The notes under the pieces were generated by a model that saw nothing but the letters and a program-made list of their open reading frames with translations, did not search any database and was not told the DNA's origin. Positions 1,483 to 12,444 of a stretch of DNA of 14,548 bases are shown here, one piece after another (position 1 is the first letter of the stretch; the number at the start of each line of letters is the position of its first letter). A program made the translations under genes and the position numbers. Location of the stretch: IMG/VR virus record IMGVR_UViG_2529293142_000010; one strand, written 5' to 3'. The stretch is from a virus. Taxonomy: Duplodnaviria > Heunggongvirae > Uroviricota > Caudoviricetes.

Positions 1483-1978
1483 CTATAATCCTCTCTGCAA
1501 AGCAGTGCTGGATGGCATATCCTGCGCACCGCGCGCTTCGCACATCATATCCATGTACCACGCCTGGCCCCTTGTGTCGCCAGTGTACATAATCCCGCGC
1601 ACAATATAAACGCCATCCGTTGCGATGCTGGCAGGCTGCGATGTGGTGCCGCTTAGCGTGATATTTCCATCCGTGTTCTGGTCGGTGATCTGACCACCAG
1701 CCATCGCAATATCGTTGTTCGACAACGCGGTACGATACACTGCAGCCTGATCCAGCTGAATGAGTCCGTTAACCCGGATGTTCGGATTAATAAGCGCGCG
1801 GACGTTTACGCCGTTACCGATAGTCTGCTGCGGCATGCCAATAAGCCCGGTAGCGCTGTTTGAGCACAATCGCTTCATGAACATATTCGTTATTCGCCAC
1901 CATCTGGCGCTGACCATCCACGAATTGCCATGTTGCGCCACATTGCCCGGCTACGTTATCCATTAGGTGCCGCGTCAT
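1483..1978 (-). pseudogene. Phage tail-region gene of about 165 aa carrying an internal +1 frameshift (two overlapping reading frames)
   Basis: An ATG at 1978-1976 overlaps the stop of the upstream 190-aa gene in an ATGA arrangement and opens a frame with good codon usage that stops at 1816-1814 (MTRHLMDNVAGQCGATWQFVDGQRQMVANNEYVHEAIVLKQRYRAYWHAAADYR). The ORF-track frame 1483..1941 has junk-like W/C-rich translation at its 5' end but well-behaved codons from about 1830 down to its stop. Total length 496 nt is not a multiple of 3. Confidence 0.45.
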
Positions 1979-2547
1979 GCCAAAGAGTACCGCCCCCGGG
2001 GGAATACAGTAGCAGGCATTTCAGGCGTCAGGCCTTCGGTCGCGCCTTTGGCTTCGAAGTCTTTCATCAGCGCACGGTTTACATCAGCGACCGTGTAACC
2101 GGCAGCCAGCGTCTGTGAGGTTATACTGGTGGCAAAAGCCAGATCAGTATCTGCTGCCTGAATCAGGACGTAGGAATCAACCGGACTGTCTTTTCCTGTA
2201 ACCGAGTAGCGAATTTCACCGCTGAAAATCAGTCCGTAGTTGCGACCATCACTCTGGCCCACGTCCGCCGCGTCAACTTCCCGCACTGTCCCGACGTCGC
2301 TTGCCGACACCTCCGGCGCGATACCGTCGTAACCCGCAATCAGACGCACTTTCGAAAACTCCTGCCCGGTAATTCGGTTCACAGTATCTGCCGAGAGGTT
2401 ATAAATTTTGATAGTCCCTACCCGGGACGCGCTGCTGATGTTGAACCAGTCGATCGTAAAGGTGACTTTGAAATCACTTAGCTCAATTCCCTGACCGTTC
2501 CCGTCCACAAGCTGCAGCTCGAAATGTCTCATCCAGTTCTGTGACAT
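1975..2547 (-). CDS. Phage tail component, 190 aa (function not recognised)
   Basis: ORF track; ATG start; 2-nt gap after the upstream gene stop; typical codon usage; sits in the post-tape-measure tail gene chain. Confidence 0.7.
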   Translation of the reverse strand: MSQNWMRHFELQLVDGNGQGIELSDFKVTFTIDWFNISSASRVGTIKIYNLSADTVNRITGQEFSKVRLIAGYDGIAPEVSASDVGTVREVDAADVGQSDGRNYGLIFSGEIRYSVTGKDSPVDSYVLIQAADTDLAFATSITSQTLAAGYTVADVNRALMKDFEAKGATEGLTPEMPATVFPRGRYSLA

Positions 2548-2549
2548 GC

Positions 2550-2852
2550 TTACTCCGTTGATACCAGTAAATGGCTGCGACCGCCCAGGTCAGTTTTTGT
2601 GGGGTAATCCTGTGTGTTGTCATCACAGACCACCACCAGCTTAAAACCAAGCCCCATACAGGCGTACTGCGCCAGCAGGTCAGCACCAGTGACGAGAGGA
2701 ATACCGGAGATTACCGGCTCCCCTCTGTCGCTCTGCAGGTCCATAATCCAGTACAGATCGCGCCATATGATGCTAATCCACCAGGTGACACCACCCAGGA
2801 CGATGCTGAACTGCTGGTTGTCCGCTGTCAGCGGAATTTCCTGAATTGTCAT
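2550..2852 (-). CDS. Phage tail component, 100 aa (function not recognised)
   Basis: ORF track; its ATG overlaps the stop of the upstream 41-aa ORF (ATGA). Confidence 0.65.
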   Translation of the reverse strand: MTIQEIPLTADNQQFSIVLGGVTWWISIIWRDLYWIMDLQSDRGEPVISGIPLVTGADLLAQYACMGLGFKLVVVCDDNTQDYPTKTDLGGRSHLLVSTE

Positions 2853-2974
2853 TTGCCGCCCCCCAGTAATGACGCCACGTTACCCGTGATGCTTTTCAGC
2901 AGTGAAGTATCTGGAGGTTTTGTGGTTTTGTTGCCGCTGTTCTGTACCGCCGACGTGCTGGCCCCTTCCTTCAT
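2849..2974 (-). CDS. Small hypothetical protein, 41 aa (MKEGASTSAVQNSGNKTTKPPDTSLLKSITGNVASLLGGGK); not in the ORF track
   Basis: Its ATG (2974-2972) overlaps the TGA of the upstream ORF and its TGA (2851-2849) overlaps the ATG of the downstream ORF, both as ATGA. Codon usage looks ordinary. Confidence 0.4.
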   Translation of the reverse strand: MKEGASTSAVQNSGNKTTKPPDTSLLKSITGNVASLLGGGK

Positions 2975-3270
2975 GTTGGTTTTATCCGCGACGGTAATCT
3001 GCTATGTCCGGGAGATAATGACCTCCCGTCAGGGTGAGGACGGCGGACTAGGACGTTTTCGGTTGTCTTGTCCGTCGTCACTTCCAGCGCCCGGATCAAC
3101 ATGTTGCTGTACAGCCGTTTACCGGTTACCACATCGAAGGGGATACGGCTTTCCTGCAGACCCAGTAGCTCCTGATACGTCTGCTGAGGACTCAGGCCGA
3201 GCAGGCTGGTAGCCGTCAGGTTACTGGCAAAATCCAGCAATGCGCCGCCACCGGCAAAACCAACCTCCAT
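2971..3270 (-). CDS. Phage tail component, about 99 aa
   Basis: ORF track frame 2971..3276 begins at a GTG; the first ATG is at 3270. The 5' two thirds have good codon usage; the last 25 or so codons are rich in rare codons (AGG, AGA, ATA, TTA), so the true 3' end is uncertain. Confidence 0.55.
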   Translation of the reverse strand: MEVGFAGGGALLDFASNLTATSLLGLSPQQTYQELLGLQESRIPFDVVTGKRLYSNMLIRALEVTTDKTTENVLVRRPHPDGRSLSPGHSRLPSRIKPT

Positions 3271-3392
3271 CACCACTTCTGACGGTTTTTATAGGCATGA
3301 TCAGCGACAGCGGCCCCGACCTCTACCGGATGCTCTGTTATTTCAAGCATATCTGTGTGCTTCTCTGAAATAACAACACTGGGAACAATCAT
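3270..3392 (-). CDS. Possible small ORF, 40 aa (MIVPSVVISEKHTDMLEITEHPVEVGAAVADHAYKNRQKW) filling the gap after the tape measure gene
   Basis: ATG at 3392-3390; its TGA overlaps the ATG of the next gene by one base (TGATG). The Shine-Dalgarno is weak (AGGA immediately adjacent to the ATG). It contains the 10-bp inverted repeat at 3336-3375. Confidence 0.25.
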   Translation of the reverse strand: MIVPSVVISEKHTDMLEITEHPVEVGAAVADHAYKNRQKW

Positions 3393-3439
3393 TCCTATTT
3401 TTCTGCTCTGCTGATGAAAAAGTGTAGAGAGAATATCCA

Positions 3440-5428
3440 CTAACCCACCCTCACCTGATTACTTCGCATGACCTGAGCATTTGCAGACTGTTGCCGACGT
3501 GCAACCTCATTACCGACAGCGTGCGGATCTCCGCCACCGTAAATGTGGTAGGTATTTTGCTGGTTAACCTCTGTCACTTTGCCACTAATTCCCGCCACGG
3601 CAGCCTTATTAATCAGCTCTCGAGAATAGATATTTCTTCCATTCTCATGCTGGATAATGCTGCTCATCAATGCTGACATGGTTTGCGGATCGCTCATATT
3701 CAGGGCAGCCCGGGGATCCACTCCCAGTCGTTGCGATACAGCCCTGATATACGCGGTTGTGTTGTTATTATCAGACGCAGGTGCCCAGGTAGAGATAATT
3801 TTCTCCACACTGTTTATTCCCCGTCCGGCGTACAGCATTAACTGACGAGCAAGAGCCCGTAATCCATCAAAAGCGGTTTCAAATCTGGCAAATCGCCCGC
3901 CCGGGCGTTCAAGAGAAGCCCCAGCCTGACCAGCAAAATTAAGATTTCCCGGATTGTTATTCCGTTCTCCTCGTTTCGTAGCCTGTGCATGTTGTTCCGG
4001 CTCATCATCACCAAACCAGCCGCGTACCGTCCGGCCCACACTGCGGGGATCAAATCCCCAGTGCTCTTTAATCCAGTCGGCAGTACTGTTAGCGCTGTCT
4101 GTAACCATCGGCATCGCTGACGGATTTTCGCTGCCCTGATTAAGTATCTGTTTGCCGATGCTGACGGCATCAGCCCAGCGGCCATCTTTGATAGCGTTGA
4201 GCAGGTCGGCGATCATGTTCAGCATTTTGCTGAATTCGCCCATCTGGTCGATGAAGTTGCTGAAATCCCACTTCAGGGACCATGATTTGGGGTCAATATT
4301 GAGCAGTTTCGCCAGCGCTTTCACCAGGTCGTTAACGGTCGTTTCAAGGTCACGAACCATCTTCAGCGCGGCATCAACCTCCGGTTTCCACTTGCCCCAG
4401 TCAATCAGGCTGTCGCCGCCTTCCTTCCAGGTCTGATAGTCCTCCCACAGGAGGGCAATCCCCGCCGCCAGCGCGGTAATGAGGCCAATCGGCGACATCC
4501 AGAACGTACTGTTCAGAATGCGCAGCGCAATCGTCAGTGCGCCAAACAGCGAGATCAACTCCCGCGTTTGCTTATCCAGCGATTGCCACCAGGTGATGAG
4601 GCCTGATGTCCCCTCAATCAGTCTGAAGAACAACCGCCCGATAATATCCCCGAGCGCCAGAATGCCTTTTATGGCTTTCGTCAGGGTCTGCTCGATACGC
4701 GGGAAGTTGTCCAGGATATGGCGGCGCAGAGTGTCCAGCGAACCCGCAAGCCCACCCGCAAGATTAGAGCCGATTTTGTCACGGGCCATGCCTGCCATCG
4801 CGCCAAACTCACGCAGGGAGGTCATAAATTTGTTGGAGCTTCTGGCCGCCTCGTCAGCATTGAAGCCGATAGCTTTCGCCATTGCGCTGTACTGCCCGGA
4901 GAAGCCACCCACACCGCGACGCACAGCCATCAGGGTATTTTCGTCAATGCCCAGCATCTGCGCATACTGGTTAGCACGGTAATACGGCATGTCGCTGAGC
5001 TTCTGGCCTACCCCTGTAAAAATAGCGGCCATGTCACGCATGTTACCGCTGGCATCCCGTGTCTGTACCCCCAGACGATTCAGAAATCCCTCCGCCCCGG
5101 GATTATTACGAATAAACCGGGAGAGGTTTTCCAGAGAAGATCGCGCAGCGTCCACGCTGCCGCCAACCTGCGAAACCGCATAGCCAATAGACTGAATTCC
5201 CTGGACTGTCGCTCCGGTGCGCTGTGACGCCCAGTAAAGATTATCCAGACCGGAGGCGATCTTAGCCGTGAAGGCCACCACGGACAGCGCAGTTCCTTCG
5301 ACGGCCAGCCCCATTTTGATGACATTTGCAGTTGTACCGGCGAGGACAGAACCGAATTTTTTCGCTCCTGCATCATCCACACTGAAGCCAAGCGAGACGA
5401 GGAAATCTTTAATAGTTTCAGCGTTCAT
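3440..5428 (-). CDS. Tail tape measure protein, about 662 aa
   Basis: Large ORF directly downstream of the frameshifted chaperone; Ala/Gly-rich helical N-terminal part; internal hydrophobic segments (LISLFGALTIALRILNSTFWMSPIGLITALAAGIALLW). The ORF-track start at 5449 is a TTG; the first ATG is at 5428, preceded by GGAGAGAGG. Confidence 0.85.
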   Translation of the reverse strand: MNAETIKDFLVSLGFSVDDAGAKKFGSVLAGTTANVIKMGLAVEGTALSVVAFTAKIASGLDNLYWASQRTGATVQGIQSIGYAVSQVGGSVDAARSSLENLSRFIRNNPGAEGFLNRLGVQTRDASGNMRDMAAIFTGVGQKLSDMPYYRANQYAQMLGIDENTLMAVRRGVGGFSGQYSAMAKAIGFNADEAARSSNKFMTSLREFGAMAGMARDKIGSNLAGGLAGSLDTLRRHILDNFPRIEQTLTKAIKGILALGDIIGRLFFRLIEGTSGLITWWQSLDKQTRELISLFGALTIALRILNSTFWMSPIGLITALAAGIALLWEDYQTWKEGGDSLIDWGKWKPEVDAALKMVRDLETTVNDLVKALAKLLNIDPKSWSLKWDFSNFIDQMGEFSKMLNMIADLLNAIKDGRWADAVSIGKQILNQGSENPSAMPMVTDSANSTADWIKEHWGFDPRSVGRTVRGWFGDDEPEQHAQATKRGERNNNPGNLNFAGQAGASLERPGGRFARFETAFDGLRALARQLMLYAGRGINSVEKIISTWAPASDNNNTTAYIRAVSQRLGVDPRAALNMSDPQTMSALMSSIIQHENGRNIYSRELINKAAVAGISGKVTEVNQQNTYHIYGGGDPHAVGNEVARRQQSANAQVMRSNQVRVG

Positions 5429-5657
5429 TATCCTCTCTCCATTTCTCAATGCGCCGCTGGTTATCCGCTTTTACCGCCAGATGGTCATTCAAGAGAGCAA
5501 TGTCATACAAATCGACAGAGCCATCTTTAAGTGCTGTATAGGGAATTAACCCGGCGTCAACCGGATTGAGAAGGTAGGACAGCCCGTCCGGCAGGCTGTT
5601 AAACGTCAGCCCTGTTGCAGGCTCTGCGTCGTGCTGGTAAGGGGTGTAGGCAAAAAA
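5425..5657 (-). other. -1 frame extension of the tail assembly chaperone (GT-like fusion product); slippery heptamer T_TTT_TTG at 5657-5651
   Basis: The chaperone reads ...GGA AAT TTT TTG...; after a -1 slip the frame stays open for about 77 codons across the otherwise non-coding 177 nt between the chaperone stop and the tape measure start, ending at TGA 5427-5425 beside the tape measure ATG. Confidence 0.65.
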
Positions 5658-6058
5658 TTTCCCAGCGAATCGGCGACCACCCGCGCCACCAGATGAAGCA
5701 TGACCAGCAAGTCAATATCATCAAACATCAGTTCGCCATGGGTAAATACCGGCACCCATCCGTCCATATGACGCCGCGATACCACCGCAAGACAGGGATG
5801 AATAATCGCATCGGTGTCATCTTCGGTCAGGGAAGACAGTTCCTCAGCGATACGCGGGAGCATGGTTTCAAACACCGGTTTTAACTGCTCGAATTTCACG
5901 GTGTCGATTTTGCCATCAGCAGGCAAACGGGAGCGAATGCTCCCGAAATCTGACATCATTCCCGCCAGTACCGGCAGAAGTTTGCGGGTCACTTTCAGCT
6001 GGTCAAAAACGCTGAGTTTTGCCGTGCGATATTTCACACCTTTGATTTCGAATTCCAT
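5606..6058 (-). CDS. Tail assembly chaperone (G-like), 150 aa
   Basis: ORF track; located between the tube-like gene and the tape measure gene; followed by a long open -1 frame. Confidence 0.75.
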   Translation of the reverse strand: MEFEIKGVKYRTAKLSVFDQLKVTRKLLPVLAGMMSDFGSIRSRLPADGKIDTVKFEQLKPVFETMLPRIAEELSSLTEDDTDAIIHPCLAVVSRRHMDGWVPVFTHGELMFDDIDLLVMLHLVARVVADSLGNFLPTPLTSTTQSLQQG

Positions 6059-9130: not shown

Positions 9131-9534
9131 AGCTGGCGACCGCCTGCACCGAACATCGTGATCAACTGATAAAATTCAGCGCCATATCGGGTGTTATTCC
9201 AGAAGCCTGCATCAGGATTCAGCGTCGCGCTGATGTCATAACTGACACTTACCTTGTCAACGGACTTTGAGGACTGAACACCATTGGTTGAGCCGCCAGG
9301 GCCACCAGCCAGCATCGCCCTGCTGTCAGCCGCCCAGAGCGTCATGTAGTGCGCAACGAACAATCCGGCAAAGTACGGAAACAACTTTTTGCCGGTGACG
9401 TTTTCGCTCAGCAGTTCATCTGCCAGATTCAGACGAAACTGGATTTGCGCTTCGGGATATTTGGCAGGGTCAGCAAACTGCGGGAAGTCGCGGCGAAAAT
9501 CACTTACCGCTGGCAGACTTTGATTCTTTGGCAT
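9127..9534 (-). CDS. Head-tail adaptor-like protein, 135 aa (possibly DUF4054-like)
   Basis: ORF track; ATG start; position after the capsid gene. Confidence 0.65.
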
Positions 9535-9721
9535 TTTTTACCTCGTTACGCGCGTCTGTGGCTTTGCCAACGGATACTTCCGCGTGCGCACGAGTGAACC
9601 AGTGCGTGGCAACGTCTTCCTCCACAGCATGACGGCCTTTAACAAACTCGCGCCGTGAACCGTCGGGAAGCGTGAGCACAAACGGGGTATGTACGTGTAT
9701 TACTGCATTATTTTTTGCCAT
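9500..9721 (-). CDS. Small hypothetical phage protein, 73 aa, Lys-rich C-terminus
   Basis: ORF track; ATG start; lies between the capsid and adaptor genes; 35-nt overlap with the downstream gene start. Confidence 0.5.
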
Positions 9722-9762
9722 CGGGTCATCCTTAATGGCCCCGCCAGGGGGCCATATGGCTG

Positions 9763-11224: not shown

Positions 11225-11482
11225 TTACCCTTTACGGTTTGCCCAGAATTCGGCGTTTTGTTTGTTCAGGGAAGCGATACTGGTCATGCCCATGTTTGGG
11301 CGCTGTGCATCGCCGGTGGTGGCGCGGGTGTTTCGCCCTTTGGCAATCTCAGACACGGCATTAAACGCCATGTCGACCGATTGTTTCGGTAATTTGCGGA
11401 TATCCGCATCACCGACTATCTGGCGAACCAGCGTTTTGTCAGCAGAAGCCAGAACCTCACGTTTGAACGCGGTCGGTTTCAT
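11225..11482 (-). CDS. 85-aa ORF that is probably the C-terminal part of the upstream scaffold/protease-like gene rather than an independent gene
   Basis: ORF track. Its frame stays open, with no start codon, for a further 90 codons upstream to 11752, encoding an acidic low-complexity stretch ([49 protein letters not shown]...) and overlapping the 3' end of the 11650..12444 ORF. Confidence 0.5.
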   Translation of the reverse strand: MKPTAFKREVLASADKTLVRQIVGDADIRKLPKQSVDMAFNAVSEIAKGRNTRATTGDAQRPNMGMTSIASLNKQNAEFWANRKG

Positions 11483-11649
11483 CTTACGGCTCAGATCAAT
11501 ACCCGGAACAATAACTTCGGCACGCCAGGCTGAGTCACCAGTAATCGTGGTTTCCTCTTCATCGTCCTCGCCGTCACCGGTCGGATTATCGTCAGGCTTA
11601 TTATCGTTATCGCCCGTGGCATTTCCTTCCAGCTTAGCCAGCAGGGCTT

Positions 11650-12444
11650 TCAGTAATGTTTTGAGGTCATCATCACTGTCGCCGGTTGGGCCTCCCCCAT
11701 CTCTGGTGCTTTGTCCGGTAGTGGTTGCTGCGGGGACAGGTTGATATTGAGATTAACGCCCTGCGGCAAATCCCCCTCATCTCCTGTAACCGATGCGGGA
11801 GCCGACTCCACCAGTTCGTTCATGGTGTCGGCATCTCCTGTCTTGATGGCCGCACGCATGCGGTTCCACCAGTTTTTCTTTTGATTTGCCATTGTGTCTC
11901 TGTCTCCAATTGCACAACGATTTCCGGCTCTGCCTTTAGGGACAAGAGCCACATGGTTTCCGGTAATATCGACCTGCTCAGCTTTACCTGGCTCGGTCTG
12001 CTCGTACTCCGCGTCATAGCCGCACGACACTTCGCGCAGGCCATCTTCGATAAGCTGAATGGCGTTTTCGTCTTTGACGATAAGGTCAGCCAGCATCAAA
12101 TCAGACTGCTCACCCGTCCCGCGCCGGACATTCTGGAGGTGCCCGACAGCAAGCTCTTTCCAGTTCTCGGGATTTACCAGCCGCACATTCCCGTTTTCAT
12201 CTTCAGGATGCAGAATCGTGATGCTCATCCCTTCGAATGAGGCAAGCGTGGCCGGATGGAATACCTGCTCAGGAGAACGCGTGACGACTATTTCACCGAA
12301 CTTATCGGGTTTCAGTTTTGGCAGGTCATCAGCACCATAGAGCTGCTTACCTGTTCGTCCTATCGGCACGTCTTTGCACAGCAACGAGCCGTCAGCCAGC
12401 TGATAGCGGGTTTCCCCCAGCCGGGTATTGAAAAAATATTTCAT
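11650..12444 (-). CDS. Scaffold/protease-like head protein, 264 aa as written (DUF2213-like); probably truncated by a frameshift
   Basis: ORF track; ATG start with AGGT upstream; position after the MuF-like gene. A run of five C on the plus strand at 11694-11698 (GGGGG on the coding strand) is where a 1-nt length change would join this frame to the 85-aa ORF frame, giving about 400 aa. Confidence 0.7.

Follow-up and report, generated by a model that had tools for sequence, protein, structure and literature searches.

A one-base loss in a G run as the probable cause of a split DUF2213-type head gene in a defective prophage

Two minus-strand open reading frames (ORFs) in the window, which is the whole 14,548-nt stretch of DNA in the IMG/VR record IMGVR_UViG_2529293142_000010, are the pieces of a single gene, as the restored frame is collinear with the gene of relatives. 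Judged from sequence, this split gene is a DUF2213-type gene of 406 aa that is predicted to encode a head maturation protease or scaffolding protein. The break is probably the result of a real mutation, the loss of one base in an unconserved run of G, that disrupted a prophage gene, and not a site of programmed recoding. The lesion is not novel and has already been flagged as a frameshifted pseudogene in the public genome FDAARGOS_1059.

The two pieces of the gene

The 5' piece, which carries the DUF2213 head protease/scaffold part of the gene (12444..11650, minus strand), consists of 264 codons, starting with an ATG at 12444 and ending with a TGA at 11652-11650. Its translation and the alignment to intact relatives indicate that codons 1-250 are authentic, with Met249 at 11700-11698 and Gly250 at 11697-11695. 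After the residues KAPEMG, 14 out-of-frame codons are read before this premature stop. The coding strand at the break is ATGGGGGAGG, in which five G are present at 11694-11698, one of them being the G of the ATG codon, and a longer coding-strand reading across the five-G run is CCAGAGATGGGGGAGGCC. Alignment with the relatives maps the missing base exactly to this run (11694..11698, minus strand; C5 on the plus strand), which is the site of the one-base deletion.

The 3' piece of the same gene (11225..11695, minus strand) is read in the -1 frame with respect to the 5' piece; it contains codons 251-406 and the stop codon, encoding an acidic linker and a C-terminal scaffold-like region. The 85-codon ORF (11482..11225, minus strand) is the tail of this 3' piece, read from the internal Met322 to a TAA at 11227-11225. 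A preliminary description of the DNA had noted that the frame of this ORF is open far upstream of its ATG, and both the ORF listing and the translation bear this out. The frame is stop-free back to 11752, and no ATG, GTG or TTG was found upstream of 11482 in this frame over its open length. The acidic, low-complexity linker that had been placed in the open stretch is likewise visible in its translation. A rough estimate of the chance of 90 stop-free codons is 0.95^90, or about 0.01, and the open second frame is therefore not accidental. The stretch that marks the upstream limit of the open second frame in the translation (11696..11752, minus strand) is open simply because it happens to overlap the 5' piece, and it falls outside the ancestral reading of this frame. 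When one G is inserted at 11694-11698, a product of 406 aa is obtained, close to the fusion of about 400 aa that had been foreseen, and this product is collinear with and equal in length to the DUF2213 proteins of close relatives.

Intact relatives and predicted function

A region of 1.5 kb around the gene was searched against 5,426 complete E. coli genomes, and the locus was found in 339 of these, always on the chromosome. In the best-matching genomes, the gene is a single CDS of 1221 nt annotated as "DUF2213 domain-containing protein". The gene order in the relatives is Mu F-like minor head protein, DUF2213 gene, "structural cement protein Gp24" and DUF2184 major capsid protein. In the alignment with E. 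coli A41, the only frame-changing difference is the presence of GGGGGG in A41 versus five G in the window. Salmonella SEN34 (Brunovirus), Hafnia yong1, Citrobacter Omnitron and Klebsiella GZ7 also have one ORF each, of 400-410 codons, which continues from the DUF2213 domain through the acidic linker and the C-terminal region without a change of frame, and GZ7 retains this single ORF at a nucleotide identity of about 67%. The intact prophage and phage proteins (WP_240764358.1 of E. coli A41, WP_000873179.1 of O55:H7 CB9615, and those of vB_EcoM-606R2, SEN34, yong1, Omnitron and GZ7) are encoded at the same locus position as in the window and have the same domain order, consisting of the DUF2213 domain, the acidic linker and a conserved C-terminal region. 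Unlike the interrupted copy in the window, however, each of them is encoded by one ORF of 400-410 codons. The comparison with full-length homologues proposed in the preliminary description thus yielded a single ORF in the relatives with the acidic linker in frame. Two separate genes in related phages had been named as the outcome that would speak against a split gene, and the opposite was found: one ORF, and no conserved second start.

Multiple profile matches point to the identity of the gene. The Pfam family PF09979/DUF2213, labelled Pa193_gp24 in newer precomputed hits, matches residues 16-181 of the 264-aa piece with E = 1.2e-42 and 146.1 bits, versus a gathering cut-off of 22. The repaired 406-aa protein matches PHROG 1961 end to end and also matches three PHROGs annotated as 'head maturation protease'. 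The 3' piece alone matches positions 231-416 of the PHROG 1961 profile, which is its C-terminal half, with E = 7e-57, and the G-restored protein aligns over its full length with nine relatives, including the region beyond the DUF2213 domain. These matches agree with the initial reading of the locus as a protease- or scaffold-like head gene with an acidic linker. The annotation of the relatives and the Pfam matches of the neighbouring genes place the locus in the head module, with portal and minor head genes on one side and the cement and major capsid genes on the other. A phmmer search against all PDB chains found no homologue of the intact protein at E <= 1.

A member of the PF09979 family, gp24 of Pseudomonas phage Pa193, is a putative scaffolding protein; its residues 286-326, which follow the DUF2213 domain, fold into a helix-turn-helix and bind the inside of the capsid at the five-fold vertices (PMC11456595). 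The Pfam family is common to gp24 and the E. coli protein, but gp24 is 478 aa long and comes from a virulent Pbunavirus, whereas the E. coli protein is 406 aa long and comes from a prophage. By analogy, the C-terminal region of the E. coli protein may be the counterpart of the capsid-contacting part of gp24. The 264-aa product keeps the DUF2213 domain but would be devoid of this capsid-engaging part; such a truncated product is probably non-functional and would not be expected to support head assembly.

Variation inside the G run and rarity of the deletion

The protein motif at the run is Met-Gly-Gly-(Gly/Asp/Glu)-Pro, and intact relatives read GGGGGG, GGGCGG or GGGTGG at the site of 11694-11698. 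In IMG/VR, the intact form is present in 117 contigs. The first Gly codon is GGC in 62 of these, as it is in the O55:H7 prophages, SEN34, yong1 and Omnitron, and GGT in 46, as in vB_EcoM-606R2. In the remaining 9, and in E. coli A41, it is GGG, which creates the run of six G (G6). A C or T therefore breaks the run in 108 of the 117 intact contigs. Since the homopolymer is a minority synonymous variant, the site does not look like one selected for slippage, as such a site would keep the run.

The form with five G (G5) is rarer still. It is found in one IMG/VR contig (IMGVR_UViG_2529293142_000025), which overlaps the window, sharing an identical 40-mer at a matching offset, and from which the window probably derives. 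Among the complete E. coli genomes, the allele was traced with a 36-nt query centred on the run, which under the 28-nt exact word of megablast matches the G5 allele alone, and it was found in one of the 339 genomes with the locus, FDAARGOS_1059. In a search with 80 nt, the other 59 rows among the matches listed span 81 nt, which means that the extra base is present in those genomes. No exact match to the G5 allele was found in a set with one genome per species. From these sequence comparisons, the G5 allele appears to be a rare derivative of the minority G6 variant.

The DUF2213 gene of FDAARGOS_1059 (I6I16_RS12710 in NZ_CP066032.1) resembles that of the window in having G5 at the same position and a span of 1220 nt, and it is marked as a 'frameshifted' pseudogene by PGAP (NCBI). 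Its sequence background is not that of the window, from which it is separated by about a dozen substitutions over 1.5 kb, and within a 4.5-kb stretch the neighbouring portal, minor head, cement and major capsid genes are annotated as intact. The G5 allele sits at two places in the FDAARGOS_1059 chromosome, which represents either a duplicated frameshifted prophage region or the same miscall made twice.

These alleles suggest how the gene may have been broken. In a prophage sub-lineage, the first Gly codon of the Met-Gly-Gly-Gly motif would have changed synonymously from GGC or GGT to GGG, creating the six-G run, from which strand slippage would have removed one G in the sequence of the window. 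As a consequence of this loss, translation would end 14 codons further on, resulting in a 264-aa product that lacks the acidic linker and the C-terminal region. The 85-codon ORF is no gene of its own, and the G5 lesion would belong to a set of inactivating lesions in a defective, IS-truncated prophage. The hallmarks of a pseudogene formed by homopolymer slippage are present, namely an uninterrupted ORF in close relatives, the loss of one base in a mononucleotide run, and further inactivating lesions in the same element (the Dit-like, 354-aa and spike genes).

State of the surrounding prophage

Comparison of the window with two O55:H7 prophages revealed eight single-base indels. One is the change from G6 to G5 in the DUF2213 gene (11696), and a second, from A6 to A5 (11227), falls in the gap between the DUF2213 stop codon and the start (ATG) of the cement gene. 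Three indels are located in the Dit-like baseplate gene (2853-3440, minus strand; 195 aa in relatives), consisting of a change from A6 to A5 at 3291, an added A at 3049 and an added C at 3028, and the correct frame of this gene is lost from about codon 51 onwards. The 354-aa gene of the baseplate region (1483-2547, minus strand) has a change from G3 to G2 at 1992 and an added A at 1861 (A2 to A3), which together enclose an out-of-frame patch of 131 nt with stop codons. The eighth indel, a change from T6 to T5 at 360, is intergenic and upstream of the spike gene. Five of the single-base indels in the window are homopolymer contractions.

The membrane-puncturing spike gene (239-336) retains its first 32 codons before IS66-family sequence begins. 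Positions 1-247 of the window are the end of an IS66-family transposase gene (tnpC), which is present in thousands of E. coli chromosomes and plasmids, and the match to the prophage stops at about 239. With its broken baseplate genes and a spike gene truncated by IS66-family sequence, this E. coli-type prophage is therefore defective. Downstream of the major capsid gene, the STY1053-family gene (9500-9760, minus strand) has a short form of 73 aa, as in O55:H7 DEC5B; in O55:H7 CB9615, it is longer by about 145 nucleotides and encodes 122 aa.

Real mutation or sequencing artefact

The indels also raise the question of whether the missing G was ever missing in the strain. In a sequencing or assembly artefact, the strain would have six G, the consensus would have under-called the homopolymer and the gene would be intact in vivo; this is a possible explanation, though a rather unlikely one. 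The exact 264-aa product is recorded in one other assembly, a Logan contig from the read set SRR057628, which is identical to the window over 12.9 kb except at 11 positions. Compared with all the relatives, the window has seven further single-base indels, and the six of them that fall in the overlap with the SRR057628 contig are absent there, including all three of the Dit-like gene. In addition, 10 of the 11 differences between the two sequences cluster at 1861-4345, as expected of a low-quality stretch. The assembly of the window is thus either error-prone in its other single-base indels or the prophage is heavily decayed. Among the other carriers of G5, the contigs L011 and L013, which carry further G-run deletions as well as broken portal genes, may also reflect noisy reads.

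The same comparison provides evidence against an artefact, as the G5 deletion is the sole indel that the SRR057628 assembly reproduces. This favours a real mutation, whereas the other indels of the window are either assembly errors or private decay of very recent date. However, SRR057628 may be the read set behind the assembly of the window, so that the agreement of the two assemblies is not fully independent evidence. Other occurrences of G5 are found on two backgrounds besides that of the window. One is FDAARGOS_1059, a finished genome, in which both places carry the allele, and the other is GCA_051691725.1 with its counterpart in the Logan assembly of SRR28921461. In the latter background, the codon adjacent to G5 is GGT, and GCA_051691725.1, which is 2% divergent, also shares the change from G3 to G2 at 1992. 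The recurrence of G5 fits a slippage hotspot and is also consistent with systematic miscalling of the homopolymer. Furthermore, a prophage cut by an IS element is expected to gather lesions of this kind. Taken with the SRR057628 comparison, these occurrences suggest a real deletion and not an error in base calling.

Recoding, switching and two-gene readings

The preliminary description had left the choice between a frameshift mutation or homopolymer error and a genuine recoding event that yields two isoforms. The former is supported, as the intact 406-aa ORF is the rule and the break is a rare one-base loss from G6, whereas the latter is not. With recoding, a -1 slip on G GGG G by the ribosome, or slippage of an RNA or DNA polymerase, would give both a protease-only form of 264 aa and a fusion of 406 aa, or the tract would act as a reversible, phase-variable on/off switch; overall, this is very improbable. 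The required shift is indeed -1, the P-site Gly-tRNA could re-pair from GGG to GGG one base back, the -1 product would be identical to the intact protein, and the same deletion is present on at least three sequence backgrounds. Nested protease and scaffold products are also known in other phages, as in C/Nu3 of lambda and I/Z of Mu.

On the other hand, the two-frame layout is found in just one of the 339 complete E. coli genomes and one of 118 IMG/VR contigs, being absent from the other 338 and 117, respectively, and from every related phage examined. The run itself is not conserved: a C or T interrupts it in most of the intact contigs, and among related phages the minority G6 lineage is the one exception to such an interruption. 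The zero-frame codons are ATG GGG GAG, and G GGG GAG does not conform to the X XXY YYZ pattern, since a slip would require GAG in the A site to re-pair with GGA. No downstream stimulatory structure was detected in the 103 nt from the G run, for which the minimum free energy is -27.4 kcal/mol with z = -1.29, 22 of 200 shuffled sequences being as stable. Moreover, a tract of five G is short, be it for slippage in transcription or for contingency switching, and neighbouring essential genes are broken too. The allele frequencies do not resemble those of a phase-variable tract either, with G5 in a single genome of 339 and G6 itself confined to a minority (9 of 117 contigs). It is most doubtful that the G6/G5 tract acts as a recurrent slippage hotspot by which head assembly is reversibly switched off in this prophage lineage, or that a low level of -1 slippage in the P site keeps the G5 allele functional. 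An internal in-frame start at Met249, in the manner of lambda Nu3, was also considered but seems unlikely; there is no convincing ribosome-binding site before it, and GZ7 has Leu (TTG) at this position.

A further reading of the locus, and an exceedingly improbable one, is that it holds two genuine genes, one for a protease and a small one for a scaffold, the latter starting from the ATG at 11482. The 85-aa ORF is indeed predicted by gene callers on at least 24 public-assembly contigs, but the upstream gene is damaged or replaced in every examined contig with a called 85-aa ORF. The causes of this damage are the G5 deletion, other homopolymer deletions, a TGG-to-TAG change at codon 307 and a Mu-like element (L009). 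The start Met of the 85-aa ORF, Met322, is replaced by Val in SEN34, yong1 and Omnitron and by Ala in GZ7, and is therefore not a conserved start. Moreover, the frame of this ORF continues as conserved protein sequence through the 270 nt upstream of its ATG.

For annotation, the 264-aa and 85-aa ORFs are best treated as a single frameshifted pseudogene and neither as two genes nor as a recoding site. Beyond annotation, the significance of the locus is small, although it can serve as a useful negative control for recoding scans. Read from the sequence alone, a gene that breaks at a homopolymer and continues in a long open second frame mimics recoding. Here, recoding was quickly dismissed by three checks, which are the allele frequency in relatives, synonymous variation within the run and the condition of the genes nearby.

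A candidate recoding site in the tail assembly chaperone gene

A different gene of the window has the appearance of a recoding site. In the tail assembly chaperone gene (6058..5606, minus strand; region 5418-6058), the sequence G GGA AAT TTT TTG is present at about 5651-5663; within it, A AAT TTT and T TTT TTG (5651-5660) are both X XXY YYZ heptamers in the zero frame. The -1 frame remains open for about 80 further codons, through a small ORF that is annotated separately by NCBI as DUF6889. By its sequence features, this site looks like a classical programmed -1 frameshift of the G/GT type and is likely the real recoding site of the window. Xu et al. reportedly described in 2004 the programmed -1 frameshift of phage tail assembly chaperones, of the lambda G/GT type. 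Such a site is a case of real recoding in a phage structural module, and the chaperone gene of the window seems to hold one. The lambda G/GT-type site has a canonical heptamer and an overlapping second frame that is conserved in relatives, whereas the break in the head gene has neither.

Other breaks of the DUF2213 gene

Various other breaks of the gene have been observed in public assemblies, and together they are the pattern of a prophage gene that drifts without selection during lysogeny. The TGG-to-TAG change at Trp307, which leaves ORFs of 306 and 85 aa, is present in the Logan contigs L008, L010, L012 and L014, which represent a different lineage of the same prophage and four independent read sets; it is a second cause of a split in this gene, unrelated to the G5 deletion. 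In other contigs, a single base is missing from CTGGGGGAAA (gene position 27) or from CCGGGT (gene position 942). In Shigella flexneri, an in-frame variant of 371 aa (P0003) is found in 17 contigs, in which 35 linker residues between two PTGD repeats are gone; the deletion is equivalent to about 11585-11690 of the window. Many further Shigella entries are contig-end fragments of the DUF2213 gene.
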